DNA from: Candidatus Omnitrophota bacterium
GTDB taxonomy: Bacteria; Omnitrophota; Gorgyraeia; Zapsychrales; JAKLDJ01
Assembly (NCBI GenBank): GCA_022703585.1
Contig: JAKLDJ010000001.1
Location: 310,891-374,890 of the forward strand
Direction of reading: 5' to 3'
DNA: 64,000 bases
The position numbers and the translations under genes are program-made. Each line of letters opens with the position of its first letter. The first letter of the stretch is position 1. Below the pieces are notes generated by a model that did no database searches, was not told where the DNA came from, and saw only the letters and a program-made list of their open reading frames with translations. This document shows, in pieces, positions 1 to 46,000 of this stretch.

Positions 1-1000
1 GGGGGCCTATTTTTTCATATTTCAGGAAAGAGCTTAAGAGGTTTCTTCCTTGGGGATTATCCGGGCTATAATCAGCCAGCATTTCTCTGGTAATCCTGAG
101 GCGGATAACACCGGGTTGATCTTCGACGGGAACAATGTGCTCCTCGCCCCAGGGGACAGGATTACGCCGCAGATCTTCCATGATGGCATCTTCCCACCAT
201 GTTGTTTCTGCGAGGCCTGTCTTGAGATCGACGATTTCTTCGGATTCCTCGCCCTGACCTTCATCGTCCATCATCCCTGTCATCCCCATCATCCCCGGCA
301 GCACCATTACCAGCAGGCCGAGGTCGAAAACAGGGATAAAGGAGAACAGATTCTTTTGGGAAAACTCCTGTACGTCCTGTTCTGGTTTCGGCAATTTCGT
401 GACACAAAGAGTAAAGAAAGCAACCGTGCCATACTTATAGGAAGCCGTTTGAAGCAGCCATTTTAATGCCTCCACACCCACAATCGCTCCTCTACCCAGA
501 GATATTTCGAAACCGCCAAAGCCAGCCTTTTTTCTCAAGCGACCTAAAAGCGTCTCGGCAAGAACTGTCTCTATGGATAATTCATCATCTTCGAGATTAC
601 CTGTTTTATTAACAATACGTCTGTTGTCGCTTTTTCTTCGAACAACATCATCGTTATCGACGTAGTATTCTTCAAATAATCGCCTCCCGCTCTCGAGATT
701 TCCAACGCGTTCCGCTTTGAGCCTGTCCCCAGCGGAAAGCATGTCGCCGATCATCTGATAGATTTGCCCTCCTAATCCCTGCAAGGCCAGATTGGTCCTG
801 ACGCGGTTAAAGTAAATTGTGTCTAATGCTATCGCAATGGAAATTGTTTCATGTTCGTCATTTTCTTCGGTAAGCCGTCTGAGGAAGAAGGCATCGGAGT
901 TGGAAACCACACCGTCGACCTCTCTTTGCAGATAAACATCAACGCGATCTCCGCTCGCATCGGAGATAACGGCCTTGAGGATGTAGCTGTCGCCGCCTCT
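1..1000 (-). other. C-terminal-most module in the window; function unknown; acidic tail
   Basis: I translated 2-1201 codon by codon: ...LALQGLGGQIYQMIGDMLSAGDRLKAERVG...MMDDEGQGEESEEIVDLKTGLAETTWWEDAIMEDLRRNPVPWGEEHIVPVEDQPGVIRLRITREMLADYSPDNPQGRNLLSSFLKYEKIGP. There is no stop before position 1. Confidence 0.5.
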
Positions 1001-19000: not shown

Positions 19001-22000
19001 CCGTGGGATTTCACGATTAACAACAGCATCTTTAATGTCACCGATAATATTCTCATGCTCATCGTGGATCGCAACGGCTCTGAGCAGCCTCTTAAAATTG
19101 AAGGCCGCCTCGACTTTCTCAATTCCTCCAGCCACGGATGGAGATTGAGTTGTCGAGAGCGGCCTGTTGATTTGTCTTTGGCCCGTCAATCCCGCCTGTT
19201 GGCGGGGTTGACGAGGTCTCGTCATCCCGTCGTCTCGTCGGGATGACGGATCTTTAGTCTTTAGTCTTCGGTCTTTAACGGCTTTTAGCGCTAAATACGT
19301 CACAATCCCTGCAATCAAAAGAATGCCAAGCGCAAAAGCAATTTGAGCCAAGCCGACACTGCTCACCCCACTCACACCTAAAGCAAACGGCGTGACAAAC
19401 ATCGGCATGGGGTTAATGCCTTTAAGACCTTCCGGCCCCTTGGGCGCTTCGGGAATACTGGCCGGAGCAGCCGGGAGTTGCGCCTCAGGCGCCGGAGCCG
19501 GCATAACAGGATTGCTGACACTGCCGTCGGCGGAAGAAGCGGACTGCCCTTGGTCGACCTCGCTAAGAGCATTCAACCGCAAGACTAATTTTTCGACAAA
19601 ATCCATGATCGCAAGATTAAGCGTCATTTTATCGGATAAGTCGGAAAGGCTTTTCATTTCCTTCTTGAATAAAACAATCCGCGACCTGACGGGCCTTAAG
19701 TAAGGGGTGTGTTTAATTCTAAAGATGCTTTGCAAATAATTCAATATGTCCCCTTCGCCGTGAACGTTATAGGAATGGAAAGATAAAACCCATGTGCCTT
19801 GCGACAAGGTGCGAATATACTTAAACCCTTCGGCAAAACTCTTTAATCCGGAGCCGCTTCTATAAATTTCGACATTCTCATCTCGCGCCGGATCATGTTT
19901 ATATCTCCAGGTAAATCCGGAGCCGCGATGGGACAGCAAATCTTGGGCCTGCTCTCTGGTCATGGAAATAGTATTAAAGAATTCTTCCAGCGTCTGCCTT
20001 TGTTCAATAACGGCGTTCCATATCTTTATATGAGCCCGGGCCTGGCCCCGTTCAATATCCACCTTGGGCGAAGAAGCAAGGGCTTCAAACATACCGGTCG
20101 CGCGCGTTTCTTTTGTCCGGTATATTTCCCCTAACCAAATAAAACTATTCATCAGGCTCATAACCGACGGCCTTCTTCCCCCCATGGGCTGACGGCTGTA
20201 TTCGTTGGCGGAATATGCCACCAAATACCCGTTTAAGATCCTGAACTTACCTGACTTAAGGCCATCAACCAGGGCATCGTGTGCTATCCGGGGAGCAAAA
20301 ATATTTACCTCTTGGCCCTCTTGATCAACAATATTAAATAATTCCGGAATGGCCCCGCCCCAGACGCCGATCAAAAGCGCTCCGTTGGGGAGTGCCTTCA
20401 TCATGAAGGTGGATGAGGCCTCAAGAAATTCATCGGATAGCATGATCGTAGCGGCAACACCCCGGGCAATAATCGGGGCTTCATTGATATTGTAATTTTC
20501 GATAAAGGCCATTTGATTTTCCAGGCCATGCTCTTTGGCAGCGGCCTTGAGACCGTCAAAAAGGGCCCTTCCGCCATATTCAAATATGCGTCCGCCGATA
20601 ATTAACCGGCTATTCGAACTCTTAAAGTCTCTTAAGAAATCCTCGTTTTTAAACAACCTGAGCATCTCAGCGTATTTATCCGGCCCTTTGTAGGCAACCT
20701 GTCTTCTGACATTAGAGACCATAGGATGCGTTAAGACGGCATCGCGAAGGGAGCCGAATTGGGCGTCGATTTGTTTCCAAGCGGATTCATCCTGGGCCGT
20801 TTGTCTCAACAACGTCCCATAATCTTCGTAAGCCTGGCGGATATTTCCGTCATTAAACGCTGTCCCTTTAAGCGTTTCCTCAAGCCAGGTGGAGCCGCCC
20901 ATATCCTGAGTTTGATTATCTTTAAGCCACAATAACAATCCCAGGGCATAAAAGGCCTTGATGATTTCAAAGCGGAACTTAAATTCCTGGAGCAGCGGGG
21001 CATTTTTGTCTTCTTTTAAGGCGGCAAATAACACGCTGTCACTCTCTTCGAGGGCAATGCCTAATTTTGCCTTGAAACTATTGATTAATTCGCGGGTTTC
21101 TTCTGCCTGCCATTGATCGAATAGGGCGCCGTTTGTGCTTCGGAGTCCGCCCTGGTTATAACTGCGGATTTTGTCCCGATAGAGCGTGAAGACTTCCGTC
21201 CCTAGAACAGGCGTGTGCTCATAAACACCAACGCCGGTAATGACATCGACTGTCTGGCCGACGTATTCGACCATATCAATAACGCCGCCCCGGATGATAT
21301 AAGGCCTTAAAGCTTCCTCAAACCGAAGCATTTCATAGGCATAGGCAGGCGGCTGGTAGAGGCCCGGCTTCCAGACCGTGTGGTTGATATGATGCCGGAC
21401 GGCTTCCGGGAACAGATATTTGGGGCCGCTGACAAAAAGTTCATTCTCGATAAATAAGATGTTGGATTTGGCAAGGCCCCGGCGCTGCAATTCCTTAAGA
21501 AGCAACTGGGACATCTCGTTATAAACCGCCATATGGACAACCCGGTAATCGGAATCGGGGTAGAGCTCATCAAAGATATAAACTTTCTGATCCCCATCAA
21601 AATAATAGGCATCGCCGTAATAAAGCGGCGCGCGGCCGAATTTTGTTTCCGCGTAATAGATGTCCGCGTAAATCGTCTTACCAATAATCCTCTTGGAGCG
21701 AGGGTCACTGGCATAATTCTTAAACACATGGTCAACCAGGTTAAAGGTCAGAGTAATATCCGTTTTGACCAGGATCTCTCTTAACGCGCTGCCCAAAGTT
21801 TGGCCTTCGGGTAACGGCGGCAGGTTGATAACGACGCCCTTGATGTCATTGTTATACAGCGGATGAATCGCGATATTGTCAGCGCCATTCTTCTTCCAGC
21901 CGACCACCAGGTCGTGCATGAGGGCCCCCAAGCCGCCGGTCATCGTCAACTGGGCGATAAAGCTGGTTAACCGCCCCACCCTTTTTTCTAATTTATCCAG

Positions 22001-25000
22001 GAGCCCGCGGTCAATTCCGGCCTCAAACTGCAAGCTAACAACAGAATAATCTTTAAGCGCCGGCGCCTCCCGCTCAAACCAGGAAAGCCCGCCCATGACC
22101 GGAAGGAAAATCAAAGGCAGTAACGCAAACGGCATAAACGCGCCGAGATATTCAGAACTCTCCCCTTCGACCGCCCATTTCTCTTCTTCGGTTTTATCGA
22201 GCAACCATTCCTTGGTTATCCTTAGTCCTTCTTCCAGACCGGTTAGGTCGCTTAAAGATAAGTTAAATACACGTTGCATGCGTGTCGTATCAAAGGTCAA
22301 GGCTGGCGGAACCACAAGCCCTAGACTCCTCATCTTTTCTTCGCTCATCGCCTCAACCGCGACAGGAGAATTTATGACTTTCTTGATTGCCAAAAGAAGC
22401 CGCTCTTGGGTAGTCGAGGCAGGGTCGGCCACGATAATAATCCGGCCGGAATCGGTTTGCTCGCGGCTTGCAGCGGCCGTGAGCAGTTTAATCAAGTCGC
22501 CGACATAGATGTAGCTATTTTGCCTGCCCGGAATAAATGTCATGCGTGCCTGTCCGTCGGCCCGGGCCATTTCCCGTATGAACTTGGGAACGACCCGGTC
22601 AGTTTCATCACCCGGGCCATAGACATTAGCAAATCTAAGAGCCTGGCCATGCGATGAATCGACAACAAACCGCTCAGCCAAAAGTTTTGTCAATGAATAC
22701 AGCCCAGGGCCTTTACTAAAGGCAGCGGGCAAAGATTCGGACGGGGACAACAACCATGCGCCCCTGTGCGTCATTTCCGCTAATATGCGATCCCGTGCCT
22801 GCGCGACAATGCCGTAATAGCGCTCCAGCAGGTTCTCAGTATCCGGGAGAAGGTGCAAATCGGCCTCGGTAACAACGCCTTCTTTTATGGTGCCCAGTTG
22901 ATAGAAATGCACCGTCGAGGCAAAGATAAACCGTTTGTTTTGCTGGCCTGCTAACCGGGCCAGAACGGCGGTGGAAACCGCGTTAACCGCGAGAGCCTGC
23001 TCGGGGCTTATGTCTCCTAATCCGCTCCAACCGCCCAGATGGAATATCACATCACTGACGCCGACCAACCGATCCAGGGCCTCGGCATCGGTCAAGTCAC
23101 CTTCGATAAGACGAACCCTCGGATGGCCGGCAGCCAATTTCTGCCGCGTCGCGCCGTTGGTCTTTCGCGCAAGCAGGTGCAGAATACCCGTGTCGGATTG
23201 TTTCAATAATAATCGGATAAGCTGTGAACCAACGGCACCCGTCGCGCCGGTAATGCCGTAGTTCATCTTTTTCTCTTCCTTAACCATCGCCGCCAGGGCG
23301 AAGAAGGTTGTCAATATCTCAAAACCAGGCAGCACGAACGCGCCGAGGCGGCCTTCGCCGTCATCCTCGTCTCCCTCGACCAAGGCCCTTAGGTCAACCT
23401 CCGAATACGCCGACATCCTGGATAAGTCAAAGATGATGTTGCCCTCCGACTGGGCCGTCTCGGCGTTTTCGAACGCGAAAACCAGCATCCCATCGGCCAG
23501 GCGGACATCAGTGATTTTCGAATTCTTAAATTGCTGAATAATCCTATAAGGAAACGCCTTAACCATGATTTGAGGCAGTGTCTCCCGGGCCCTTTGAGCG
23601 AGTTCTTCGGAGGTAACAAACCGGTGGCTGATAAAGTTTCCGCCAGTACCTCTTTCGCCGCCGACCACCGGGACCATATCTCCGACAAACCCGACAAAAT
23701 CCCTGAAATAAAACATGGCATTGTAGCCTGCCTTGGCCAGCAATATGAGTATGGCGATGGCAATGTCCCGGCGCTTCGTATCCGGAATCAAATCCCTTAA
23801 ACTCTTCTCGTCGTAATTTGAGGCAAACAGAGTTTCGGTCAAGGCCGCCAGGTCATTAGTAAGAACCCATTTTAGGGCAGCCGCCAAACCATTCGCATTG
23901 CCGGTTACTACTTCATGCATAAAGCTCTTGAAATAGGTCTTAAAAGCGGCATATTCACTATCGGCATTCCAGCCCCGGAAGCGATCCCGATGATGCTGTT
24001 CATACGTTTCCAGGAGAAAATCGATTTTTCTGCCGTAGGTACTCACCGCGTAAAAGATAGCGGTTAAGAGCACACCCTTCATGAAAGAATAATCATCGCC
24101 ATTGGTTAGGCTGTGCAATTCATGCATCAAATCGACCCTGAAGCCGTCAACGCCCAAATCGATAAAGTAGTTTAAGTAGTCGGAATAAATCTTTGCCCAA
24201 TATTCTCCCTGGTCTAAATCCGGATATAACTGATCCTGGGCTTCGCCGCGGTAATAGACAAAAGCCTTGCGGCCGTCTTTAAGGTGCAGGATAATTCCGC
24301 CTTTATTCTCTTGGAATATAGCCTCATCACTCGTATCAATGTCATAAAGTTCTTTGCGGTGAGCAAAATAACGATAGTTGTCTTCAGTCAAAGCCTCCGG
24401 CGATAACCAGGGTTCAAAGTCGACAATAACTCTTTGGCCGCGCGCCTGGACGCCCGCGATAATATCTCTGACGTCTTGCTCGGGATAAACCAGGCTCATA
24501 TCCGTTCTGGAGAAGAAATTACCGTTGCGCTCAAAAAGCCGGACGAGCTTGCCTTCATAAGAAACAATCTGCTTCTTCGTGGGATAGCCGATGACCATGG
24601 AAACGGTTGTGCCGCCCACCCTTAATGTCAACAGGATGCGGCAAGCTTCACCCCCAAAATGTTTCGCCTCAAGAATCTCTGTATCATCGCCTATATCAAA
24701 GTCCTTTTTTCTTTCCTGAAGATACGTTTTCAGATCCTCATCCTGCACATGCCTCATCTCTTCATAATCAAGGCCATGGACAAGCCGGGATGTGTACGAG
24801 GTTTTAAGCAGTCCGAATAGATACATCGTGGCTTTGATGCCGGTTCCTTTTAATAAATCGGCAATGCCGATGATATCGCGAACGGCCTTGGCCGGATGAA
24901 CGGTTAACTCTCCGGCCTGGTTGATCTCTGTTGCCGCGTCGAGAGTATTAACAATCAGTGTCAAGCCGCCGTCTCTTCTTAAATCGGCTACAGATGCCGG

Positions 25001-28000
25001 CACAATTCCTGTTTCTGCTCTTGCCAGAAAAGCAGCGGCCAAAACCGCATCTTCTGCGGGCTGTATTCTTTCTGCCCTGGCCGCGAAATCTTTAATCTCC
25101 GCAAGCCCTTCTTGTCTATCGCCGTCTATCGCCGCCAAAACCATCATCGGCACCAATGCCAGCATTTCGAATCCGGGCAACACGAACGCGGCGAGGGTAT
25201 CGTCTCCACGGGTTGTCGCATCCCCGGTTTCAGAATTGAACCAGGTGAGTATCCTGCGCGTCTCTGCTTCGCGTAACCGTGTCGACAGCCATTCCCGGGC
25301 CATAACGGGGTGCTCAATACGGAATTGCGCTGTCTCGGGTTCTTGAGCCAACTGGTTGATCTCGTTTAATACTGCCTGCGCATCCGTCATCAGGCGAGCG
25401 GCAATCTTGTCAATCTTTGCCGTATCGTCAGCCGCTGTCCCTTCGATAATTGCTTGACGGAAATGCACTGCCATGCGCATGGCTTCGTAGGCAACACCTT
25501 CTTGGAGAGTATTTTTATGGTCAACCAAGGATTCCAGGACGAGAATCGTGGCAGCCCCGAGGGAGCGAATGAGCGGTTCAAGGGTCCCTTCCAATCGGAT
25601 ACGGTAGACAGGCTTGTCACCGCCAAGTTCTTTGATGAGAAAGTTGATAAATTGGCGCGGGAACTGATAGATGCTATAAACAGTTTGGGCGGTGGCTATC
25701 AAATCTCCCAGGCTATCGGTATCCTTGCCGGTACGTTGACGATAAATACTTTTGAGTTCACCGCGCAGCATATCAATAAAATCATTTTCCACGGTGATGG
25801 CGATCGGCAGCTTGCCGGTCAAACGAATTTCCTTATAAAGAATGCGCTCAAACATCAGCCAGGCATGAAATTCAGCAAAACCCTCCATAAGCCAATGGAA
25901 TAATCTGTAGGCCTGTACGTTCAGACGCGGCTGCAAGGCATGATGGCGTTCGTGCAGCATAACCCAGGTCAGCCGAATGGGATCCGTAATCGTATCGTTA
26001 ATAAAATGCAGGTTTCGCGTGTCCCCGTTACGGTCGGTAATGGCCAGGAAGTGCCCTTGCGGTGCCTCGTCTGCATCGTCTATCAACGTCAAAGCCTGGC
26101 CTAAGGGTGTGTCATAGTTAAACAAAATAACGTTATACAAATTCATATGCCGCCTAAAGGCGCTGTTTAAAATGTTGGTAACGCTTCTTAAGACTTGCGT
26201 TTGCTGCGCCGTTGGGGCAATCGCTTCATCATTGATATGATGAATGAGCGAAATCACTTCAAGCACATCGCGGCTGCGCAAGTTATCCAAAAGCGCGACC
26301 ACTTTCTTTAATTCCGCTAACCGTTTTTGTTTCTCGACTAACAAACCATTATCGATCCGGGGATTCTTAAGATAAGTTTCTAATTCACCCACGCGATCGC
26401 TCCAGTATTCATAGTAGCTGTCCAGCGTCCCTTGCCGCTGCTCATTGCCCTCCGCCATCCCCAAGATCGGCGCTAGGGCGAAGAATAATAAAGGAAGGCC
26501 CGGCATAAATGAGGCGAGGACTTCGGCGCCGGATCTGTCAAAATTGCGGATTGAAGCAGCAATCAAATCTTTTGCGCCATATCCACTGTTTGCCTCAGCC
26601 GCATGGGGAAGAACATCCAATATCTCCTCCCAAAGTTCCTCTATGTGACCGTTTTGGATATCGGTAATACCATACACCTTATCCAAAATACCGGGTGCGC
26701 GCAGGCTTTCCCTTAATGCGCTTCTGACGCCACGAGCACCATATCCAGCATACACTAACCGGTGCCACTCATTCTCTTTCTGTCTAGTCACGAAGATACC
26801 TCGTGCGGCATTCAACGGAAGATCCTCATAAAAGATAACCTCGGTACCAACATTCTGGGCCAAGCCATGGTTGATTCTGCTCAAGGCAAAGGCCCCATCA
26901 TAGGCCACCAGCATCTTTTGCTGGCTCGTGCTGGCGGCAAAACGCTTCAGGGCTAATGAAGGCCGCATGCCAAAATAGATAGAACCGCGCGCCACGGTCC
27001 CGAGCCGATATCGTTTCAACTGGTCTACCGTTTCCTCGATATGGCCATTGGCATCTATACCTCTCGATCGGGCAAGACGAGCCAACCGATTTTTAATTCT
27101 CAAGAGAGTATGACTTTTCATTTTGGTCAACTCGTTTTCGGAAAAGCCAAGCAAAAGATGTCTAAATTCATCTTCAGTCAATTCAAAATCGGCCAAAAGA
27201 AGTTTCAGCCGGTCTCGATTGATCATAAGAGGATCACTGCTTAATTTTCTCTGAAGGATAACAACATCGGCACCATCATAAATACCGCGGAAGATATAGC
27301 CGTTTTTGGGTTGGAGTTGTTTGCTGGCATGTATCATACCCAGAGCCGGAAGGCTCATAAGTAAAGAAAAGACCTCCACGCCCGGCACAAACGCGGCGAG
27401 GGTGTCGTCTCTACGGGTTGCATCGTCCTTCCTGTCCCTATCATAAACCGCGTCAAGCATGTTCTTCAGTTGCCGAAGCTCCCGCACTCCCTCTAACAGC
27501 ATGTTCAAACGGGTAAAATTCCACAATACGATAACTTTGCATGTGAAACGCTGGATACTATTGAGCCTTTCGTCCTGGCAATTCTCTAACAGCGTCAACA
27601 AATTCCCCAGCTTGGTCTCTGTTCCGCTAAAACTGGTCAGGATCCTGCCGCAGAAATCATCTTCATCCCGGGCTCCTGTCCAATTTTTTCGTATCTCAGG
27701 GGTCCTGGTTCTGTCTTCAATCATTCCTTTACGTAAAGACGCGCAAAGTTCCCGGACTGCTTTTTGGTAGGCGGTGATCTCTTCTCTAATTTTCTTCGGT
27801 TCAAAAAATAAGAATGTGGTCAGAACGATGGCGAAATAACGGATATCGTCAATCACATTGACAACGCGGTATCTTATCCGGCGCGACAATATTGAAAGCG
27901 CAAGCGCGATCCCCAGTATTGCCGGCCAATAATTTTCAGCAAGATTGACCTCCCGGTCCATACCGAAAGCATTCGGAGGAAGAATCGCTGCTATCGTGAT

Positions 28001-31000
28001 TGCTGTAGCAAGACATCGCAAAAGTTTATCCCGGAACGAGGCATTATTATCCTTGCGTATCCCCGCCACAAAGACGGCGGGCCCCGCCAGAAGCAGCGGG
28101 GCAAGCAGGCCCGCCATCACCGCGGGCAGGACGGAAAGTAGGCCGAATATTTCCTCACCCGGCACAAAGGCGGCGAGGGTGATTTCTTCTTCGGCTTCAT
28201 TGGCGGTTGTATCAAAATGGGTACTTGCCGCATCGTTGGCGGGGCCGTTTTCTACTAACGCCTTAAATGCCGGGTTAGCTGACAGCCATTTTGAGAATTG
28301 ACTAACGGCCTGCTGCGGGTCGGCCCTGAACATATCCGTAATTCTAGACGGTAAAGGCTGAACATCGGAAACCGCGTATTGGGAATAATAGGTTAACATG
28401 GCACGGAGGATCTCTTCGGACAATAGAATATCTACCAGCTTCCGCGGTATGCTCTTTGGCTTAAATTCACCGGCCTGATCCCTGTTATCCGATGCCGCCA
28501 GGTTGATAATGTCCTCGAATAGATAAAGCAGTTCTATTTTTGTCATTAAGCCTTCGTCTGAAAAGATAACATATTCCGCCTGCTCAAAAGAGACTACTTC
28601 TTTACCTTTTAGGGCGCTGTCTAAGCTTAACGCAAAAGCAAATTGTTTTACTTTAGCCTCGCTTCTTTCTTTTTCCTCCCCGACAAATAGGTGTCTGAAC
28701 CTCGGGCGCTCAAAGAAAGACAGGAGAATATCTTTAAAGTTTTGCGGCGCAACCTTCTTACGAAGGTATTCCGAACGAGTGGGGCACGTCGCCAGCTCTC
28801 TTAAAGGAAGATCCAAGAAGGGCTCAAAGGTGCATGGCTTGATTTTGGAAAGTTTTGCGATAAGCCGAGTTAAAAGAACTTCCATGCTATACCCTCGGGG
28901 AACTGCCTTTCCCAATCGTCTGGCCGCCTCTACCGATTTCCGGGTCGCATAGAATATTGTTCCTATAGATATTTCATGGACTTGCATACGCGGTCTTCCA
29001 AGACGTTTAAGATGCCCTTGCAGCCTTGATTCAAAATCCAGGTAGGCACTACGGTCATCGTACATGTACTCATGGGGCCGGATTTTAGGATATTGCGAGA
29101 ATTCTTCTCTAAAAATAGCTAAGACCTTGGCCATGCGCGCATACACTTCGTCTTCATCCAACTTCATTGTCTTGGCCATTCTTTTCACGGCATAAGAATC
29201 CCAGCTTAAGTTCATCCTGAATTCATTTTGAAGCAGATTATTCAGCCTCTTAAAGAATGGCTGGGCTTCTTCGATGTGCTCGACAAGCCAGAAACCGTTC
29301 GTGGTAAATTCCAGTGAGAAATAATTATCTCTGAGGCCCTGCGGGTGCTTGTCCCGGTACTCGGCCACCACTTCCATGACATCCCAGAAAGATTCCTGGT
29401 CGTCGAGAGTATCCTCGCCAACAAGGTAGATGTGATACATTTGCATATTGGAAACTGCTTCGTTAATAATGCCGGAGATATACGCCCGCCTTTCTTGTTT
29501 GTCGCCTCTGTCGCCTGCTGTGGCGGAATTGGATACCTTGCGTCTTTCGCTGATGGTTTTTCCGAGATAACAAAACGAGCAGCGGCCGGAACACGGTTTT
29601 CCCGTACGATTAGTCTGAATCATAAGCGTACGGTCATACGAAGACGCGATAGATCCTTCATATCTGACTTTATCCAGCAATGCCTGAAGACGATTGACAA
29701 CTAATTGTCTGTCCTCTATCTGGCCCATCGCCATCCCCAAGTTAATGAGCTGCCCGAGGGCCAGGAGTAAAGAAATCCCCGGCACGAAGGCGTGGGAATC
29801 GGTCTCTGCCTGATCCTTAGAGGAATCAACGAGCGTATAAGCAATTTTTATGCGGTTCACTTGCACCCGTTCAATAACCACATCAAATAGCTCGCGAGGC
29901 GCATCTGTTTTTGAGTCGGTGTAGGTAATCTGTGAGGTTAAGAAGATTCTAAAATCAAATTTTCCGCTTGCCAAAAACGGTTCAACTTTCCACGCGCCCA
30001 TCCCTTCAAGCACGACAACATCGTACCTTCCCGAATTAACCGCTTCATCAACAGCTTTTGCCGCCTGATCATAATTCCAAAAGTCGTGCCCCGTATCACT
30101 ATGCCTGGCTTTGACAAGATAACGATCGAGATGAACAATCTTATAGGTGTACGGCCTGCGGTGAAAGAGGGTTCGAAATGCTTGGGCGAGAGAGCTCTTG
30201 CCGGTATTTTCATCGCCGTCCAAAAGCGCAAGGATTGGCCTCTTCCGGTTAAGTTCATCGATGCGCCGGATCATTTTTTCAAAGACCGATTTAAACGTGT
30301 CCGATGACTGGAGGACACTGGCTAAGACCATGAGACGGATTGCTATCCGGGTGAGAGGAATCATTAAAATAAGAATTCCGACAAACCCGAAAATAATTCC
30401 GATCGCTACGATTGGCCACGGCAGGGAAGCGGCGAGAACACCATCAGTTGACGGGGTCTCTGCCACCGGCCTGTACACTCTCATGCCGCTCTCATAGAGT
30501 TTGCAGTACGGGCTCGCGGGAGGCAAAACCATATCAATATGTTTAAACAACTCCGGCGACGGAAGTCCGCGCACCACGCTACCGGTGAGTAGATATCCGT
30601 GGTCCAATACCTGTCCGCGGATCACTCTCCAAAAAGAGTCTCGCGTCGCAAGAATACCGCCAAAACCCGGATTTTGAACAAGCACGACCGGAAAACGCTC
30701 CGTGATGCCGGCTAAATCTCCGACCAGAAAACGAATGTTAAATGCCCTATTCCGAAGCCACGGGGCAACAAATTTCTCTCCTCCGAATACAATACTCGCG
30801 GTCATTTGCCGGTCGGTCTCGGAATCGACAACTACCGAAGACCGGGACATGTCCACGTCGGGGAAGCGTTCTTCAATCGCCTGCCTTATTTGAACGGCCA
30901 TATCCGTAAGGGAACTCGGGAGAACCCGTCCCACCATCGTAATCTCTGAAGGGTCAAAGCAATCCACATAAACAAGCTCTTTAAGTTGCGGGAACATCCA

Positions 31001-37000: not shown

Positions 37001-40000
37001 GAGCCCCATAAAGCCGCTGTTTTCAATTTCTTTTTGGCCGATTTCAGCAAGCCATTGAGCAGGGTATTTACCCTGGTAACCGCCGTTATGCACCGTGTAT
37101 ACGCTGGCAGTCTTCTTGAATTCCTGGCGGTAAATCGTACGCATATACAAAGGCACGAGGGCGGTATGGTGGTCACTGACGTGGATAGCATCCGGCCTCA
37201 CACCTAATTGTTTCATCATCTCCAGCGAACCGCGGGAAAGAAGAACGGAATCCCGGAATTCCAGCCGCATTCTCTTTTCTTTGTTTTCCTCATGCTTGGC
37301 GTAGGCCCGGACAAAGGCTTCCTTGTTATCGGCAACCAGCCAGTAAACGGTAAAGCCATTCACCTGGGCTTTTTTGGCGCGCAGAATTTCTATGCCGGAG
37401 TTAAACGGAATTTCAATAACCACACCCGTGTCTTCGGCGCCGTAAGATTCCATAACCTTGGCAATCGACGCAAAGCCGGGGAGGATAATACTGACCTTGT
37501 TGCCCAGCTTGGATAATGTCCGGAAATATTCATAGACATAATCGGCCTGACCGCCGACTTTTTCTCCTATCCTGGCAGCTTCCGTGGCAATGCCGACAAC
37601 CTCACCTTTGAATTGCGACACAACGCCAACCCGGCCGTTACCGTCAGGCAAATCAGCCCAGCCGATATTCCCCTGGGCGTCAACAAATTTGAATGTATAT
37701 TCAAAGTTTCTGATAGGCTTTATATCGACCCGGTAAAGCGCGCGGCCCCTGCTATTGCGGACAAAGGTCGCCTCGGTATCCGCCCATTCCCACGGATTCT
37801 TCATGTTGGAGTGCAAAAATGCCTTTAAGGTACCATCGTTGGGGCGGTTGGCATACGCTGTAAGCGTAACCTTTTGGCCAATCTTCATCGGGGCGGGAGA
37901 CTTTCTTAAATCGCCGCTTAAAGCACCTAAGGCGACAACCGGCATCATCGGCATTAAAAACAGGAACGCCCCCAATTCGGACGTTTGTGTTCCCTCATCA
38001 GTCTCTCCTGGCACGGCTCGCGGCACCTGCGTCACAAATACTTTTCCGTTGCCATACGGGAGGCTCGCCCAAGCAAAATCACCGTTGAGGCCTTCAAACT
38101 TCACGGTCCATTCGAAACTCCGGGCTGGGAATATCTTCAGTTCGTAGACGGCGCGGCCTTCAGCATTCTCGACGAATGTGAACGGCGTTTCAAAATCCTG
38201 CCACCGGCCGCTGATATCGGAATGAAGGATAACTCTCCGTGTGCCGGTTGCGTCAGGAAGATTACCATAGACCCTTAAAACGAGTCCCTGGCCTGCCTCA
38301 ATTTCGTGGCGCGCTTCTTCGAGGTCGCCTCCGAAGATGTTCGGGATGCGCCCTGCCAGGGCCTTTTTTGCCTCTTCGACAACCGTGTTTTCAAAAGCCA
38401 TTTGTTCCTCTTCGCTTCGGCCGAAAACATGCAGCGCTTCTTCGCGGGTCTTGACGCCTGCCGACAATAACCTGGCATATTCCTCTTCGGCAGCAATGAG
38501 CAGGGCATCTTCATACCGGATAGGACTATGCGTATGATATTCTTGCGGATCTTTAGGTAAGAACGGTTCCATATTTTCTGACACGGGAAGAGTCGGCAGG
38601 ATCTCCATGTCTTTCCTCGGGAATACAACGAACACGTACGGGCCGTAAGGATGCCGGGCCGGCGCATAGGGGAAGTAATGGGTCGAGGCCCATTCATAAT
38701 TTTTCGTTAAGGACGTCGGATTAGACCTGTTGCTGTAAGGTGTATTGAGCAGGGCGCCGCGGCGGTTGAGGACAACAGCCAGAATACCCTTAAACCCGAC
38801 ATTCCTCAACAGAAGTCCGGCACCTTCTCTTTGTATCCTCTCCCGTTCAATGTCATATCTGTACTTGTACGTTTCATAAACGCCAACATTGTTTTCTCGG
38901 TCAACAAAAGTCAGCTCAAAAATCATCTCGCCAAAGTCCGAACTTTGATATACCACGGTCGCTGGCGGATTACCGGACGGAACGAGCAGTGTCCCTCTCG
39001 ACCAGATCCTGTCCCCGACGGCATCAATCCTATAGGCGCGCGGTTGACCGTGCCGGTTAAGGATGATCACATCGCCGCATCCCCACAATTCGACCGGTTT
39101 ATTGCAGAACCTGCCTTCGTTGAATCGGGCGATTGTCCTTAAGATAGCGGCAAACCATTTTCCCGGCTTTAACTCACCATTTTTTGCGTTAGCCAGAATG
39201 AATTGCACAGATCTAAAATATTCCGGATAGGATATCATCCTGTTGATCAGGCGATTACTCGGATTACCTGTGCGGCCCAAGCGGTCAATCTCATAGGAGA
39301 GGAAAATCTTGAAGGCGTTATAAAGATGACTCAGGCGGGCCTGATCAGCGGCAAGTTCAGGGGATTCCGGCAAGGTGCGAACGGCGCGGACGTTTACATA
39401 GACGGTATTCCCGACCCCCTGGAGTAATGGGCCGGCCTTACCGTGAATCTCAAGAGCGAATTCTCTTTCTGTCTGGTTCATCATCCAGTCAATCAGAAAA
39501 TCTTTCTTCGCATCAAAACTGAAGGCCAAGGCGTCGAGGATTCGTTCGGCCTCAGGAAGAGCTGTGCCTTGAGGGAATGTGACGGTGATTTTATCATCGG
39601 TTCTTTGCACTCTCACCGGGAAGGTAACCGGTTCAAAGCCGGGAACTTCCTTCGCCATTACAGGGAATATCCCTTCCCAAATATTCGCCTCGTCCCGGAC
39701 TTGGCCCAGGAAGAAACTCGCCATCGACATAAACGGAATAATCGGCATCAAAGGCATGAGGGCGTTAAGAGATTCTTCAACAACCGACACTTCGCGCAGG
39801 CGGCGCTCAAAAGCGCTGCGGGCTTCGCTTAAATCTAGCAGATTGAAGTGGGGTAATTCTTCCTTCAGGAAAATGCCATGGCCGGCTACTTCAGGAACGC
39901 CATAACCGGTAATCATCCCTTCCGGCTTTGCCTTTCCTCTGGGGAAGATGTAAAGCCGGGTATCGGCTCCTGCCTGTCTTGTTACCCAGAGAATGTCAAT

Positions 40001-43000
40001 CATGTCTTCCGGCATGTGGAGGGCTTCGATTTTTCTGCTGGCGCCATCGACGATTTGCGCACGGGTTCCTTCGTAGACAAAATTCACGGCAGGCCAATTA
40101 TGGACACGGCTGGCATTATCAGGAGTCCGCTGAGTAAGTTCTTTTTCAACAATCGGGAATTGACCGAAGTAACCCTGGAAGTGGGCGTGCGTGCGAATGC
40201 TCCGGCCGGGGCCGTTCCAGAGAATGGACGCGCCGGGCATCAGTTCTGAAAGAATGGCCCCTATTCTGGAAATTTCGTTTAAGGACGGATAAACATTATG
40301 TTTGCGGTAAGAAATAACAAAGCTGGGCAATTCTTTCTTGTCATCGGTTCCCCAGAAGAACGGATTAACGTAGATATCCCAATCTCTTAAATTCGTATGG
40401 AACCGGCCTAAGTTAACGCCGCGTTCAACCAGCGGCATAAAAGCGCCGCAGAGATTACATTTGTTTTCGTCAGAATGCTGCTGTTTGAACAAATTCTTTA
40501 AAACGGTATCCCGGTAAATCTGTTTCAGCGCCAGATAAATGCCGTAGATGCCGTTTTTGCCGACATTATTAAGGATGTTGGCGAGGGCTGACTTTTTCTC
40601 GAGCGATATCCCTTTGGTGTAATTGGCGCCGCGATGGGAAACATTCACCAGCCGGTAATCTTTGCCGATCGGATAAATGGTAATACCTTCTAACTGTTGC
40701 CGTGTAATAAACCCTGCCTTCATTTGCTGCCGGGTAAGGTTCCGATAGGCTTCTTCAATAGTCGTGCCTTTGATCGGTCTAACCGCATTGCGCAACTCGC
40801 GAACCTTGCCGAAAAGAATGGCGAGAGCGGCAACAGCGGCAAGGATGGCGAAGCTCACGGGTTCAAACACTAATGCGGTAACATCTTCGCCGGGATTGGT
40901 TCCGTCGTTCCTGGGTTGATTGCCTTGTGCGGCCGGATCCGATGCCACAATGGGCCAAATGTTATACATAGGGAAGTTATCGCGGACATCCAGTGATTCA
41001 ATCAACGCCTTGGGCGCTGTCAAGACTCCCTTAATATCAAGTCGATCAAATTGGTCAACAGTCAAATCAACGATGAGCGTTTGCCCGGCGACATCGACCT
41101 CGGCATAACTATGGCCTTTACGTTCCGACTCCTGGCGTCTGATATAACGCGCCGTAAGACCGCTTTGCTGCGCCAATGTGACCGTGTGCTTAGCCCCTTC
41201 GGCACAAACAAACGGAAAATCATCATCAAACTCAAGAGACCTGCGAAGATCAGGAATAGTCTTGGTATCGTTCCAATGCCGGAGGATGACGTGCGTATCT
41301 CTTAAAATGGCCGCGAAGGTTTTAATCTCCCGCGCTTGGGCCGGAGTAACTTCAGAGTTTTGTTCGGCAGTTATCCAGCGGCTGAAAATGACGGCGAATC
41401 GTTCCGGGGTTAAGCTCACAAAGTCTCTGGCGTTAAAGTTTGCCGGTACCGGTGCATCAATATCTGAGCCTACCTCAGAAATATCCTCTTTCACGCTCAA
41501 TCTTTGGGCAACGATTTCTCCATCCTCAGCCTCCGGCTCTCCAAGATCAACTATATCTCCCAAGACTTCCATAATCTTTCTTTGCAATGCGGCTGTAGCG
41601 TCGGATGGGCTCTTGACCGGTAAAAAGCCTGTTGCTCTGTCAACAGTCACAAATAAAGAGTTTAAAAGAATCGTAATATCCCCCAAAAGGTAATCATCGG
41701 GTTGATAGACCTTGGTAATAAGAAGTACTGAACCTTTATAGGTTTCTTTGACGGTCCACTCTCTGCCATCAGACAACGTGACCTTTCTTAGGATACCGTC
41801 TTTCTCCTCCACTCTCCTCATCTCTTGACTCTGGTCAACCAGGGCCCGCAGTTCTCTATTATCCGTAATATCTTCGGTAATCTCTTTTGGCGCGAGATAA
41901 GGAAGATGCATTTGTTTCTTCATTGCACGGATTCTCTTGACCAATTCGTTTCGCGGTAACGCACCCATCCTGTGTAGAATTTCTTCAGCTGTTAATATCC
42001 CTTGTTCGTAGAGGGGTTGTTCTTCGGCGGAGATATAACCAAAAAGCTTGAGTAAGGCAGATACCCTCATAACATAGGTTGCGGTGTTAAACTCAGGGAT
42101 GGCATTTTGGTTGAACCCGTCTATAAAACAGAAACCTTCGCGCAACTGGTTACGCCCATCAATGGAAACAACCGTCCCGCCGGCCTCCGGCTTAACCGTA
42201 AACTCATACTGGTCCGTAACATCTCTGCCGTCTTTATACGCCCTGATGTAACCGGCAAAGTTGAAGGCAGGATAGTCGGCAAAGGCCTCGGCCGGAGTTA
42301 AGTCTATTCCCCCTATGCTGATAAAATCCGGGACATCAATGGTTAAGTCTAAATCACTAATAGTGTCTTTCACCGTGTCGCCGTGGGGAACAGATCCGTC
42401 CGGCCCCCGCCTTTTTAATGTCTTCCAGACCTCACCCACGACCCTCCCTTCTTTCTTATGGGTCACGGCGATCATCAGGGCTTTTTCGGCGACGACAGCC
42501 AGGACATCCTTGCCCGAGCGATGCAAGAGGCCGATAAACCCGGGATCAACAATCTGAGCTTTGCCTAAGTTGTCAATATTTGAGAAAAAGGCAAAATGCG
42601 CGTTGTCCTTCACCATATCTCTTAGCCTTCCTTCCAGGGCTAACCATTCGATAACGGCAAAATGACCGCCCGGGCACAGATCGTCTTCTCCGGTTACCAG
42701 CTTAAATACTTTTCCGTCCCGGGTCATTTTCTGGAAAACTCCGACCATGTAAGGCCTGATTTTAGAATTAAAACCGGTTTTCGATAAATACCTCATAACC
42801 GAGTTCTGGGTAGAATAGCTGTTAGCAAGATAAACCGGGATTGCAGTTTTATACTGTTTCTCCATGTAGCGAATATGGGCAAGCTTAAGATCGATAAACG
42901 TCCGCCCCTTACCGGCCCAGTTATCGATGATGGTAAACAAGGCTTTCACTGTCCCCCCGAATCGTGTGGCCAGGCCGCCATTAAGGACAACCTGGGCAAC

Positions 43001-46000
43001 CCGGTTACGTACCCTGATGGTCGCCTCGCCAAATGCCCTGTCCCCCGGGGTAATAGCAGCGTAAGACACCATGGAGGCATCTTGTACAGGCTGTTGAGCC
43101 CTCAGTTCAAGATTACCGATAAGAGGATCTTTTTTGCTTTTAACGTTCTCGATAACCCCTGCTTGAATAGCTTCAAATTCTTCCTGATTACCGGAACCGC
43201 TATAGTCCCGCTCTACCAGAAGGTGATTTTGTAATTCTTCCGGAGAAGAATTTTCAATCGCATCTGCCCCCAAAACATACTTAACAACAATGGGTTTACC
43301 GCCAAGAATGAAATAGAAATAGGTCGTCGCGGGATAGCCTGAAGTTTCCCTGATGACGATCGTCGAAATCGGGGCATGCCACTTGAAGCCGTATTCGGCA
43401 AATTCAGCCTGCAATAAATCGTGTATTTCTTCAACGCCCATCCCTTCCCGATTCAACGCCTCAAGGCGCAGAAAGATTTTTTTAAGAAAATCATCTGACT
43501 CAGAGGTAGTAATCGAACCAAATAACGGCGGAACAAAGGCAAGTACGGTGGCGGAACTAAGAGGCGTGCTAAAGAGGACGGTGGCAGCGAATAAGGCGGC
43601 AGCGATAATCAGGATAGCGGGCCCACCGCGGATACCGCCCTTCTTGGCCATCCAGTCGCGCACGGTTGAGGAAGCATCTTTGGTATTGCCTAATTGCCCC
43701 AGAAGCAGAATGGTCGGCATAATCATCATCGGCGCCAAATTCATCAAAGGCATGATGGCGTTTAGAGGCTCTTCGGGGGCTTTGGGCGCCTTGCCGGCCG
43801 GGTTGGCGGGCGCCTTCGGCGCAGCGGGCGTGTTGTCGACGGCTGGGCCTTTTTGGGTTAAAGGCGTGGTTTTGATGATTTCGAGGCGTTCGGGAGAATC
43901 AACGAACCATCTCGACTCATAATAATCCTCTATGTCATAATGTCCAACCTCAGGTTCATATCTAACTTCAAAATCATAACCTTGTTCTCGTATTTCTAAT
44001 GCTCTCTTCAAATAAAGATATAATAAAGAGGATCTATCCGTCGGTAAAGATTGCTGCATCTTCGCTAACACTTCAGAAACTAATTTGGCTTTTTTGCCGC
44101 CAATCGTAATTATAGATTCGGCAACTTCGAGAGAGGGTTCTTCCATCAACAAATTCCATAATGCTTCTTCTGCTATCTTATCTCCAGCTTGACCGCGAGC
44201 TATCAGCCTTCTCTTAGCTTCTGTCTTCTCTTCGGCAACCTTTTTCTCATGACGTCCAATGAGAGCACCAATGATATATATTACGGTAACGATAGCGGCA
44301 ATCACGCCCGCGATCAGCGGAAGGTCGGCGTGGACGGATGTAGAGCTGGGCCGAGTTTTGGGTAAATGTGACATTCGTGCATCATAAGTCTTAAATTCCC
44401 CTGTTTTTTCGTCAATAAGCGTCTGTGCAACTTCAGCTCGTGAAGCATTAATATCAGGAACCGTCTTCCAAATCAGGCTATTGGCCCAGGCAACGATTTC
44501 GGCTTTCAGCTTTTCTTGTCTTTTGTCAACCGGGGCTAAATCGACGCGCGACAAATCATTGCCGATGTTACTTACAGTTTGTTCCGGATTGTTGGCCAGG
44601 CCGGCAATAATAGCCTTGACTTCCTCCTGGGTTAACTCTAAGTCCTTTATTGGCCTGAAAAGATTTCTCTGGCGGCTAATCCTCCTAATAAATTCTTTAA
44701 ACCTGTCAGGATAATTCTTAACAAGATGCTCTAATGCTGATTCGCCCTTGAGGCCTAATTCTTTTGCCAAAAGACTGTCTTTTTGTGTAAGTAAATCCCA
44801 TTCATAAAAGCCGCCGTTTAAGAGCCGCATGACCGGCCAATGGGTGAATTTATGCAAGACAACAGAAAGGGCACGTTTTTCCTGAGCACTCGTAAGCTTA
44901 AGTTCATTAGCTATTTGATCCTCGGTATAGACAATAGTTTCCGTTTTGCCTTGAAGATGGTTGTATAACTTACGCGTTACTCCACTTTGCAAAAATCTTC
45001 CGCTCCTCACAAGGCCACGGATAACTTCGACTAAGGCAACCGCCCCTAAGCCACCCACGAACAATGTTAAGCTATTAAAATAAACGCCCACAGCCAATGT
45101 CAATACACCCACAAGAAGAGAAGAAATAATAAGCCTGCCCTTAACATTAATTGTCCTGGTTTTATCCGCCGCTTTTTCGCTGTCGTCTTTTTCTTTAGAA
45201 GATGAGAATCTGGATTTAACGGCTGGTATTATTTTCTTCATGGATGAGAGTCTGGATTTAACGGCTGGCATTATTTTCTTCATCTCCGGCATTTCGGGAA
45301 CATTGAAGTCACAGCCATATCTGTTGGCAATCTTTTTCATAATATCAAAAGAAGAATACCATCTATTTACCCAGAAACCTTTAGCCACATCAGCAAACAT
45401 TTCTCGGGAATTATTGTCAATAGAAAATCTCAAGGCCAACGGAAGAATCACGGTTACGTCTCCCAAGCCAAACATAACAGCCAAGGCAACAGTCAAGAAT
45501 CTCTCTATTGTTTTTTGGAATAAGAACGGCGCCGAGCGGGTATTCTTTGCGTTTGATATGCCAAGACCGGTAAGCATCGCATATATGCCGGCCATGGTAA
45601 AAAGGATAGCCGGATTAACCAAAGTAATGCCAGAAAACGCCATGCCTGCAAGAGCAAGCGTCATAACAAGCGGGCTTATCCAGTTCGTCCTGTGGTTAAC
45701 ATGAATAGCACGGGAATTAAAGAAGTGCGGCCCTACATCATAAGCAAACAAAAGAATGATATAGAGAACAGCGCTTACTAAGAATACCGCCGGATGATAC
45801 GGCGCAACAAAAATAACCAGCGGAAGAAGCGGGGTTGCGATCATCGGACCTATTCTCATGTAATTATAAATCTCTTTGGCGTCTCTTCTGTTAACAGCTG
45901 TTATGCGTGCCGCCATAATAAACACGTCTTTACCCTGGGTAGTATCTCTGGCCACGGCAAAGGCAAAGAGAGGATGCTGTGACGTAGAGAATACCGCCGC

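Follow-up and report, generated by a model that had tools for sequence, protein, structure and literature searches.

Putative nucleotide-sugar and alpha-glucan enzyme modules fused within a giant Omnitrophota open reading frame

Few predicted proteins are longer than the giant proteins of Omnitrophota. In those termed Archaeovorins, HEAT is the commonest domain and a GT5 'glycogen synthase' domain with GT1 comes second; it was suggested that degradation products are converted to storage compounds (West-Roberts et al. 2023, 10.1101/2023.11.21.568195). A sugar-metabolism Pfam module has also been described in long Omnitrophota proteins, with PF08323 present in 153 of 916, together with PF00534 and PGM, and both cytoplasmic-face and exported readings were discussed (10.64898/2026.06.07.730766). 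The subject here is a stretch of 64,000 nucleotides (the window) from contig JAKLDJ010000001.1 of a Candidatus Omnitrophota bacterium (assembly GCA_022703585.1, positions 310,891 to 374,890), which is an internal piece of one open reading frame (ORF) of at least 21,333 codons. That GT5/GT1 and other sugar-metabolism modules occur in Omnitrophota giants is already published, and the window adds detail to a known phenomenon. What is added is three hidden modules, a logic of synthesis plus turnover, and a clue from a linker and signal peptides.

The window resembles Archaeovorin-type giants in that its one ORF exceeds 10,000 codons and carries many hydrophobic segments together with HEAT repeats, GT5/GT1 and other metabolic domains, and in its Omnitrophota-labelled relatives. 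Unlike in the published accounts of Archaeovorins, the synthesis-plus-degradation set is here resolved module by module. UDPGP, GT35 phosphorylase, GH13/amylase and DUF4922/HIT go unmentioned in the main texts of both papers (10.1101/2023.11.21.568195 and 10.64898/2026.06.07.730766). Most full-length Archaeovorins have a divergent SecA_DEAD domain; the 64-kb window yields no SecA match at E <= 0.01, and the ORF extends beyond it.

A more distant counterpart is Chlamydia trachomatis, which secretes enzymes of glycogen metabolism (Gehre et al. 2016, PMC4829429). It is host-dependent, these enzymes act outside the bacterial cytoplasm, and its GT5 synthase is adapted to UDP-glucose. However, in Chlamydia each enzyme is a protein of its own that leaves the cell by type III secretion, and the likeness is one of analogy only.

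The region is probably part of a giant, membrane-associated 'Archaeovorin-like' Omnitrophota ORF in which nucleotide-sugar and alpha-glucan enzymes are fused and, to judge from the residues they retain, still catalytic.

A stop-free frame and its enzyme modules

The minus-strand frame that starts from base 64000 has no stop over 64,000 nt, while the other five frames have 672–1,487 stops. The 'giant protein' of the original prediction is thereby upheld. The frame was hidden in the mechanical ORF list, which shows nothing longer than 250 aa, because that list omits ORFs running off both window ends. Residues are numbered down from the same base, aa i being window nt 64000-3(i-1). Pfam domains are sparse, yet a scan of the full window finds them spread along the whole ORF: Peptidase_M23, two UDPGP, Glyco_transf_5, Glycos_transf_1, HEAT, Epimerase, Metallophos, HD and PTS-HPr. 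For the module scans the chain was divided at its hydrophobic segments and each piece was compared separately with Pfam.

A motif search of the giant-frame translation recovers every motif of the original prediction at its position, and enzymes that are normally separate are indeed arrayed covalently in one ORF with hydrophobic segments between them. The expectation that Pfam profiles would recover the modules holds for both UDPGP modules, GT5 with GT1, and the SDR module, all of which exceed their thresholds, but not for the GH13-like, GT35-like and HIT modules, which fall below or are unmatched. As these three escape standard Pfam annotation, such modules are probably under-represented in published domain catalogues. 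Catalytic residues, whose presence had been put forward as a check, are kept in the GT5 module, the GH13-like triad, the GT35-like lysine, the two His and Gln of the HIT module and the SDR motifs. The modules look catalytically competent rather than degenerate.

The two sugar-1-phosphate nucleotidyltransferase modules were predicted from the sequence LNGGLATRFGG, which occurs at aa 7006 (nt 42953-42985, UDPGP-1) and again at aa 9541 (nt 35380, UDPGP-2). Both are placed in the UDPGP family by PF01704 scores of 90.9 and 87.1 bits against a gathering score of 22. The loop aligns to LNGGLGTSMG of UGPases, SNIDNLG is kept, and UDPGP-1 matches UGPases in PDB at 9e-12. The modules arose by an internal duplication, which spans 33806-35695 and 41339-43300 on the minus strand, and are 77% identical in amino acids and 79% in nucleotides. 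Identity by codon position is 0.83, 0.88 and 0.66, with a dN/dS of 0.22; both copies are under purifying selection. An assembly artefact was considered and is ruled out: 21% of bases differ, mostly at third codon positions, and this, with the dN/dS, means that the duplication has been kept under selection.

The HxHxQ module foreseen at about 40.2 kb as GalT/HIT-like belongs to the GalT branch of the HIT superfamily, on the evidence of relatives that match DUF4922 and of its predicted fold. It has CNLC at aa 7848-7851 and HAHFQ at aa 7938-7942 (nt 40175-40189). Its own sequence has no Pfam or NCBIfam match at E <= 5, and phmmer against PDB finds nothing. An exhaustive HMMER search of 1.84 billion representatives found 21 relatives, nearly all in very long proteins or fragments of them. 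In an alignment of 16 sequences H205, H207 and Q209, which are H7938, H7940 and Q7942 of the window, are invariant, and 12 of the 16 match DUF4922 (best 1.5e-20), one of these being named by NCBI as a DUF4922 protein of Candidatus Omnitrophota. A match of the 16-sequence profile to SH2B in PDB was set aside as chance, being on the string HLHFQ only. Structure prediction on the excised module, another of the checks proposed, gave a confident AF2 model from this alignment (pLDDT 82.9, pTM 0.84, five models in agreement). Foldseek against PDB places yeast Ap4A phosphorylase Apa2 first (7.8e-6), with CDP-DAG pyrophosphatase and a DUF4931 protein next; all three are HIT-fold proteins.

GDP-L-galactose and GDP-D-glucose phosphorylases belong to the DUF4922 superfamily (PMC9871823), and GDPGP1 yields glucose-1-phosphate and influences glycogen levels (PMC7041677). 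The finer label for the module is accordingly that of a nucleoside-diphosphate (NDP)-hexose phosphorylase-like domain of the DUF4922/GDPGP1 superfamily, with Ap4A phosphorylase as the predicted closest solved fold. In common with GDPGP1/VTC2 and Ap4A phosphorylase it has the HxHxQ motif, the CxxC upstream, the Apa2 fold in its model and relatives that match DUF4922. Unlike these enzymes, it is missed by Pfam DUF4922 and has an extra helical N-terminal region of about 110 residues; and, unlike GDPGP1/VTC2, it has relatives almost only inside very long proteins or their fragments.

The glycogen/starch-synthase-like module scores 115.5 bits with PF08323 (gathering score 22.7) and 38 bits with PF00534 (26.4). 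Its best PDB relatives, at about 1e-38, are Arabidopsis SS4 and the glycogen synthase of Agrobacterium tumefaciens. The catalytic motif set of GT5, reportedly defined by Yep et al. as KxGGL, H161, R300/K305 and E377 in E. coli numbering, is retained in part: alignment to the PDB relatives identifies K8814, R9144, K9149 and E9227 as well as TGGLGDTV (TGGLGD at aa 9249). These four residues, TGGLxDTV, the end-to-end match to the glgA profile and the beta-sandwich modules at its N-terminal side are the points of likeness to GlgA, SSIII and SSIV. SSIII-type enzymes have starch-binding modules N-terminal to the catalytic domain.

The two beta domains that were predicted directly before GT5 and compared with starch-binding modules are a real internal repeat, R1 and R2 being 39% identical over 121 aa (E 8e-20). 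The relative P0007/L001 has a third copy ahead of its GT5, and two Trp are invariant over the three distinct copies. However, no sequence method ties them to a carbohydrate-binding module (CBM): the piece that contains GT5 has no Pfam match apart from GT5 itself, and a profile of the three copies finds nothing in PDB below E 0.1, the best being SoxZ at 0.1. An AlphaFold model of R2 from the three-sequence alignment is an eight-stranded sandwich with pLDDT 74, good in only one of five models. R1 and R2 may be beta-sandwiches nearest the glycogen-binding CBM21; a carbohydrate-binding nature is compatible with the modelled fold only, and a part in binding glucan is plausible.

For the GH13 region II sequence that was noted at about 24.1 kb the outcome is mixed. 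GVDGFRVDLMH is in place (aa 13283, nt 24122-24154), but the module has no Pfam match (PF00128 included), nor one in NCBIfam, even at E <= 5. What phmmer finds in PDB is cyclodextrin glycosyltransferases, and among 5.8 billion proteins the sole close homologue is P0001, a 621-aa gene with 39% identity. The link to GH13 comes through a bridging sequence, P0024, which has a PF00128 domain at 1.6e-24 and to the same domain of which the module aligns by BLASTP at 7e-9. Window and P0024 read, respectively, VIVDFEPWL and VIVDFVPNHM in region I, GVDGFRVDL and GVNGIRADM in region II, FLLETY and FLAETY in region III, and SNYDE and ENHDE in region IV. The catalytic triad is kept, as D13290 (in GFRVD), E13331 (in FLLETY) and D13397 (in SNYDE), and is kept also in P0001. 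The module is classed as one that would work like a clan GH-H glycosidase or transglycosylase, a candidate rather than a confirmed member of GH13 itself.

An extended-SDR module, not among the earlier predictions, follows. It has GATGAVG at aa 13582 (GxxGxxG) and YSLTK at aa 13768 (YxxxK), and matches epimerase/dehydratases in PDB at 6e-10.

The 'GGL' glycosyltransferase that was placed at about 20-22 kb is of GT-B type and has the motif, but it is specifically GT35-like and runs down to nt 19343, past the predicted start of the region at 20400. Its motifs are MTGGLGAL, with GGLG (aa 14022, nt 21937), NHTV (aa 14205), IGGR (aa 14468) and EASSTFMMK. K14535 (codon nt 20396-20398) aligns with the pyridoxal phosphate (PLP) Lys in EASGTSNMK of 2c4m. 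The window module falls short of the PF00343 gathering score (1.5e-4, 20.6 bits against 27), and matches TIGR02094 at 6.6e-7 and 2c4m in PDB at 5.6e-4. Its nine homologues include P0025-P0029, which are 41-46% identical over about 90% of the length. All four relatives that were rescanned (P0024, P0025, P0027 and P0028, 42-51% identical) pass the gathering score with 30-34 bits, and a seven-sequence profile matches glycogen phosphorylases in PDB at 7e-6. The PLP Lys (K565 in the alignment) is invariant in seven family members, as are GGLG, NH and GGR. By these sequence criteria the module is a GT35 phosphorylase-like domain that retains the PLP lysine. It shares GGLG, NHT, IGG[KR], EASxTxxMK with its lysine, and GT-B family with the GT35 phosphorylases (TIGR02094 'more_P_ylases'). 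In contrast to known GT35 enzymes, it aligns to known profiles over only about 65-125 residues, and its whole family, including the members that stand free, is very divergent.

The same modules occur together in relatives. In L001/P0007 the order is CBM-like, GT5, then HIT, with CBM48 and a branching-enzyme-type amylase further downstream; as GT5 here precedes HIT, modules have been shuffled between giant genes. HIT is followed by a GT35-like module in P0011 and P0030, GT35-like and GH13 are on one protein in P0024, and HIT is joined with GH57 in P0002. The GH13-like gene P0001 lies on L053 (ERZ1286166 contig_3842), where it adjoins a GT5 gene and a gene for CBM48-amylase-amylase_C-PGK. L001 (CAYIMR010000001.1) is a 92-kb contig of a metagenome-assembled genome with one frame open throughout the 21.9 kb examined. 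One frame is also open throughout the 10.7 kb examined of L055 (Ga0302319_10010584), which has no Pfam matches and was the single locus matched by a narrower alignment profile search. P0006, P0008, P0017 and P0018 are labelled Candidatus Omnitrophota by NCBI and P0024 Elusimicrobiota; the nearest contig in the GTDB set is labelled 'uncultured Planctomycetales'. A search of the JGI metagenome contigs for an exact 60-mer of the window had no match. The 'sugar metabolism' content of the window is a coherent and selected set of putative enzymes for synthesis, recycling and breakdown of a glycogen-like polymer, and more than scattered GT5 matches.

Table 1. Positions of the features in the window (nt of the window; aa of the giant frame)
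Feature	nt	aa	Strand	Basis or remark
Giant ORF	1-64000	at least 21,333 codons	minus	single stop-free frame, open at both window ends
Strong transmembrane candidates		6563, 6796, 7715, 10034, 10284, 10310, 10456, 10592, 10941, 11196, 14887, 15333		
UDPGP-1, sugar-1-phosphate nucleotidyltransferase of UDPGP family	40859-43558	6815-7714	minus	PF01704 9.2e-26
Hydrophobic segment between UDPGP-1 and HIT, transmembrane candidate	40802-40858	7715-7733	minus	Kyte-Doolittle 2.33, dG +0.5
HIT-superfamily (GalT branch) NDP-hexose phosphorylase-like domain	39746-40765	7746-8085	minus	homologues and fold
Pro/Met-rich linkers		8080, 8676, 9348, 11954, 12495, 12940, 13555, 13951		poor insertion candidates
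Linker motif sites	22094-22150, 23282-23338, 25127-25183, 26462-26518, 28064-28141, 35903-35959, 37919-37975, 39707-39763		minus	
Beta-sandwich repeat R1, CBM-like	37976-38335	8556-8675	minus	repeat of R2
Pro/Met-rich hydrophobic linker between R1 and R2	37919-37975	8676-8694	minus	LGAFLFLMPMMPVVALGAL; rough dG sum +2.0
Beta-sandwich repeat R2, CBM-like, fused directly to GT5	37562-37921	8694-8813	minus	repeat of R1
GT5 + GT1 glycogen/starch-synthase-like module	35981-37600	8801-9340	minus	PF08323 4.3e-33, PF00534 1.6e-09
UDPGP-2, paralogue of UDPGP-1	33902-35902	9367-10033	minus	PF01704 1.3e-24
Cluster of 7-8 strong transmembrane candidates with HEAT repeats	30359-33901	10034-11214	minus	hydrophobicity, HEAT_2
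Divergent GH13-like (clan GH-H) module	23339-25126	12959-13554	minus	cyclodextrin glycosyltransferases in PDB 7.6e-5; BLASTP to P0024
Extended-SDR NAD-dependent sugar epimerase/dehydratase module	22148-23281	13574-13951	minus	PF01370 1.2e-26
GT35 alpha-glucan-phosphorylase-like GT-B module	19343-22090	13971-14886	minus	TIGR02094 6.6e-7; homologues pass PF00343

Hydrophobic segments and linkers

Along the chain 47 hydrophobic 19-mers reach a Kyte-Doolittle value of at least 1.8. Strong transmembrane candidates make up only part of these, many of the others being Pro-rich, and the 'membrane anchors' that were proposed between the modules survive in that reduced form: some strong candidates are present, but many of the segments are Pro/Met-rich, weakly hydrophobic linkers. 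The transmembrane candidate that precedes the HIT module has an acidic N-flank and a basic C-flank. In the linkers an acidic run is followed by [LV][GA]A[FL][VLM]PG.E..F.LL..LP, at module boundaries; LAAFVPGEEIFGLLSVLP and LGAFVLPGFEILTTFF are examples. The regular expression matches 13 times, against 3.1 +/- 1.8 in shuffles, and is unmatched in the relative L001. The N-flank of the linkers is mostly acidic and the C-flank in several is basic, with the same polarity at successive linkers, which is not the pattern of alternating transmembrane passes. The notion that every hydrophobic segment is a transmembrane pass was rejected: it would put tandem repeats and nucleotide-dependent modules on alternate sides, and conflicts with the uniform flank polarity. 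Anchoring, export and cleavage are all possible functions of the linker, which is a concrete sequence element with which each of these can be tested.

A clue comes from the free-standing relatives of the GT35-like module. Four of them, P0025, P0027, P0028 and P0029 (940-1,302 aa), start with sequences that were judged by eye to be signal-peptide-like, for example MKRFFAAFLALAVAFNPIAAQA followed by Q. Such N-termini are not known to have been reported for GT35, and an exported GT35-like family would be unusual. The giant's linker aligns where signal peptide and spacer sit in the free-standing proteins, just before a conserved SW..NAP.LKDY. P0026, P0027 and P0028 are in ordinary gene neighbourhoods (L056, L057 and L058, the loci of free-standing homologues). 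Around both P0026 and P0028 there is a syntenic arrangement with fab genes and a gene for Sortilin/Vps10 repeats.

Strong transmembrane segments are absent from two long blocks, inside which the recurrent Pro/Met-rich linker joins one module to the next. The first, aa 7734-10033, comprises HIT, the two CBM-like repeats, GT5 and UDPGP-2, and is nucleotide-dependent and synthetic. The second, aa 11215-14866, comprises modules of unknown nature, then the GH13-like, epimerase and GT35-like modules. The transmembrane cluster at aa 10034-11214, which contains HEAT repeats at nt 31223-31555 (HEAT_2, 3e-10 and 6e-9), separates this degradative block from the synthetic one. For the nucleotide-dependent block a membrane-tethered position on the cytoplasmic side is the most likely, since UDPGP, GT5, HIT phosphorylase and epimerase need NTP, NDP-sugar or NAD. 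For the degradative block, export can be argued from the signal-peptide-like N-termini of the free-standing GT35-like relatives. With nucleotide-dependent enzymes and relatives of signal-peptide proteins on one chain, the topology problem is sharpened.

Proposed chemistry and alternative readings

From family membership we infer the substrates and the order of the pathway, as well as, from the considerations above, the topology. The two UDPGP modules would form NDP- or UDP-hexose from hexose-1-phosphate and NTP, and the SDR module would interconvert nucleotide sugars. GT5 would elongate an alpha-1,4-glucan, a polymer that the two beta-sandwich modules at its N-terminal side probably hold. The GH13-like and GT35-like modules would trim or phosphorolyse the glucan to glucose-1-phosphate, and the GDPGP1/DUF4922-like HIT module would convert NDP-hexose and phosphate to hexose-1-phosphate.

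Several observations weigh against this reading of a fused, catalytic, cytoplasm-facing set. The GT5 module matches TIGR02095 glgA end to end at 4.4e-89, yet its 299.3 bits are below the cutoff of 328.45. The claim that it has all the canonical motifs does not fully stand: it reads KVGGQ where KxGGL is expected (Gln for Leu), and at the position of E. coli H161, the His before the Asp of 'HDW', it has Ser8942 in IHVSDHH (the relative P0007 has Asn there, and DHH is conserved). With these two departures from GlgA and the score below the cutoff, donor and product could differ from those of glycogen synthesis. Also unlike GlgA, GT5 is here embedded in a giant chain and the neighbouring pyrophosphorylase is of UDPGP type, not GlgC. 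Both signature His of GH13 are lost, region I having DFEPWL for DxxxNH and region IV NYD for NHD. The UDPGP modules match PF01704 only at profile positions 21-226 of 413, its N-terminal half, after which a long insertion follows. A 'complete' toolkit, as originally described, is not what the window holds: Pfam scans of the 64 kb find neither a branching enzyme nor a phosphoglucomutase, nor any debranching enzyme of known type. The missing enzymes could lie outside the window, since the gene continues past both ends. As for topology, the estimates come from a crude hydrophobicity and dG sum and serve as a rough guide only; if aa 7715-7733 were a true helix, the two UDPGP modules would be on opposite sides of the membrane. 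The signal-peptide-like N-termini of the free-standing GT35-like relatives, too, fit ill with a purely cytoplasmic assembly.

The observations on GT5 bear on whether the product is a storage glucan. That the modules instead serve the synthesis or remodelling of another hexose polymer, or of a glycan of the cell envelope or linked to protein, is possible though improbable. It would account for the two deviant motifs of GT5 and its shortfall against the glgA cutoff, and for a pyrophosphorylase of UDPGP rather than GlgC type; the SDR epimerase and the GDP-hexose-phosphorylase-like module suggest traffic in non-glucose sugars, and segments resembling UDP-GlcNAc pyrophosphorylase and fucose pyrophosphorylase are present in related giant ORFs. 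However, the best matches of the GT5, GH13-like, GT35-like and CBM21-like modules are all alpha-glucan enzymes, and what relatives add is CBM48 with a branching-enzyme-type amylase, and GH57.

The topological observations bear on a reading close to that of the original prediction, which saw a surface-tethered and perhaps prey-directed machine. The modules, the GH13-like/GT35-like block at the least, would be outside the cytoplasmic membrane or delivered to prey, where they would bind and process alpha-glucans of the prey or draw on its nucleotide sugars, by analogy with the use of host UDP-glucose by Chlamydia. We regard this as unlikely, though several points speak for it: the signal-peptide-like N-termini of free-standing GT35-like homologues with the giant's linker in the same position, the Sortilin/Vps10-repeat gene which these homologues adjoin in ordinary genomes, the M23 peptidase, normally extracytoplasmic, on the same ORF, and the odd number (seven) of strong transmembrane candidates between the two blocks. 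In the predictions of West-Roberts et al. the majority of Archaeovorin domains are extracellular, and secreted glycogen enzymes have a precedent in a bacterium of the PVC group (PMC4829429). Nevertheless, UTP, NDP-sugars and NAD, on which four module types depend, are unavailable outside the cell, and these needs of UDPGP, GT5, HIT and epimerase point to the cytoplasm rather than to the surface. Among the localisations that West-Roberts et al. predict there are some that they themselves describe as highly unlikely. No secretion signal for the giant ORF lies in the window, and its N-terminus is not there either; the signal peptides of the relatives are assignments by eye.

The linkers invite a further interpretation, that the product is a polyprotein in which they are processing or targeting sites, and which is cut into single enzymes, each membrane-anchored or exported. 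The excess of motif matches over shuffles, exactly at module boundaries, the repeated flank polarity so unlike alternating passes, and the position of the linker where free-standing relatives have a signal peptide would all fit. C39 and S8 peptidase domains are present on other giant proteins, for which cleavage was suggested (10.1101/2023.11.21.568195). In the window, however, M23 is the only protease domain that Pfam scans find; the linker expression finds no counterpart in the relative L001, and the linkers have no positively charged n-region of the kind that signal peptides have. This we consider quite unlikely.

More speculative, and something of a long shot, is the combination in which the giant is a membrane-threaded or processed carrier that places glycogen enzymes outside the cytoplasm, whether in the periplasm, at a contact site or in prey. 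If so, prey sugar phosphates and nucleotide sugars would be captured into a glucan store under control of the predator and mobilised again, the giant would do in one covalent chain what Chlamydia does with its secreted glycogen enzymes, and the Pro/Met-rich linkers would be internal export or processing signals in replacement of the signal peptides of free-standing relatives.

Loss of catalysis, with the modules serving as glucan- or nucleotide-binding scaffolds only, is very improbable, for although three modules are too divergent for Pfam, the GH13-like module lacks the two signature His and GT5 lacks an H161 equivalent, nucleophiles, general acids and cofactor residues are kept in every module and invariant in relatives at 25-50% identity, and the UDPGP paralogues have the low dN/dS given above.

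Other features of the chain and of related contigs

The stretch best conserved with respect to the relative L001, at about 63% identity, is membrane-rich and lies shortly before the enzyme modules (45350-47554, minus strand; aa 5483-6217). It coincides with a dip in G+C to 0.435-0.45, against about 0.49-0.52 elsewhere. Pfam and PDB searches with the conserved membrane-rich stretch nt 44321-47560 gave no match. At 46994-48049 (minus; aa 5318-5669) are three internal repeat copies of about 62-77 aa which are 48-52% identical.

A pair of paralogous modules, at 28373-29755 and 12542-13909 on the minus strand, is 36% identical over about 460 aa. Its matches, to Radical_SAM and a P-loop kinase-like domain, are weak and sub-threshold.

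On L053, and on L054 and L059 of ERZ25039480 (contigs whose names suggest long-read assemblies), homologous modules are in same-strand gene runs with short gaps or overlaps, and in this contig set GH57 and DUF3536 are split over two gene calls. These runs may be giant genes that have been broken by frameshift errors and not true operons.

Also on the minus strand, at 61247-61582, 6260-6499 and further sites within 2-10501, the ORF has Peptidase_M23 (1.5e-07), PTS-HPr (1.8e-05), HD (3.6e-07) and Metallophos (3.4e-08) domains. One chain thus bears a mix of typically extracytoplasmic and typically cytoplasmic functions.

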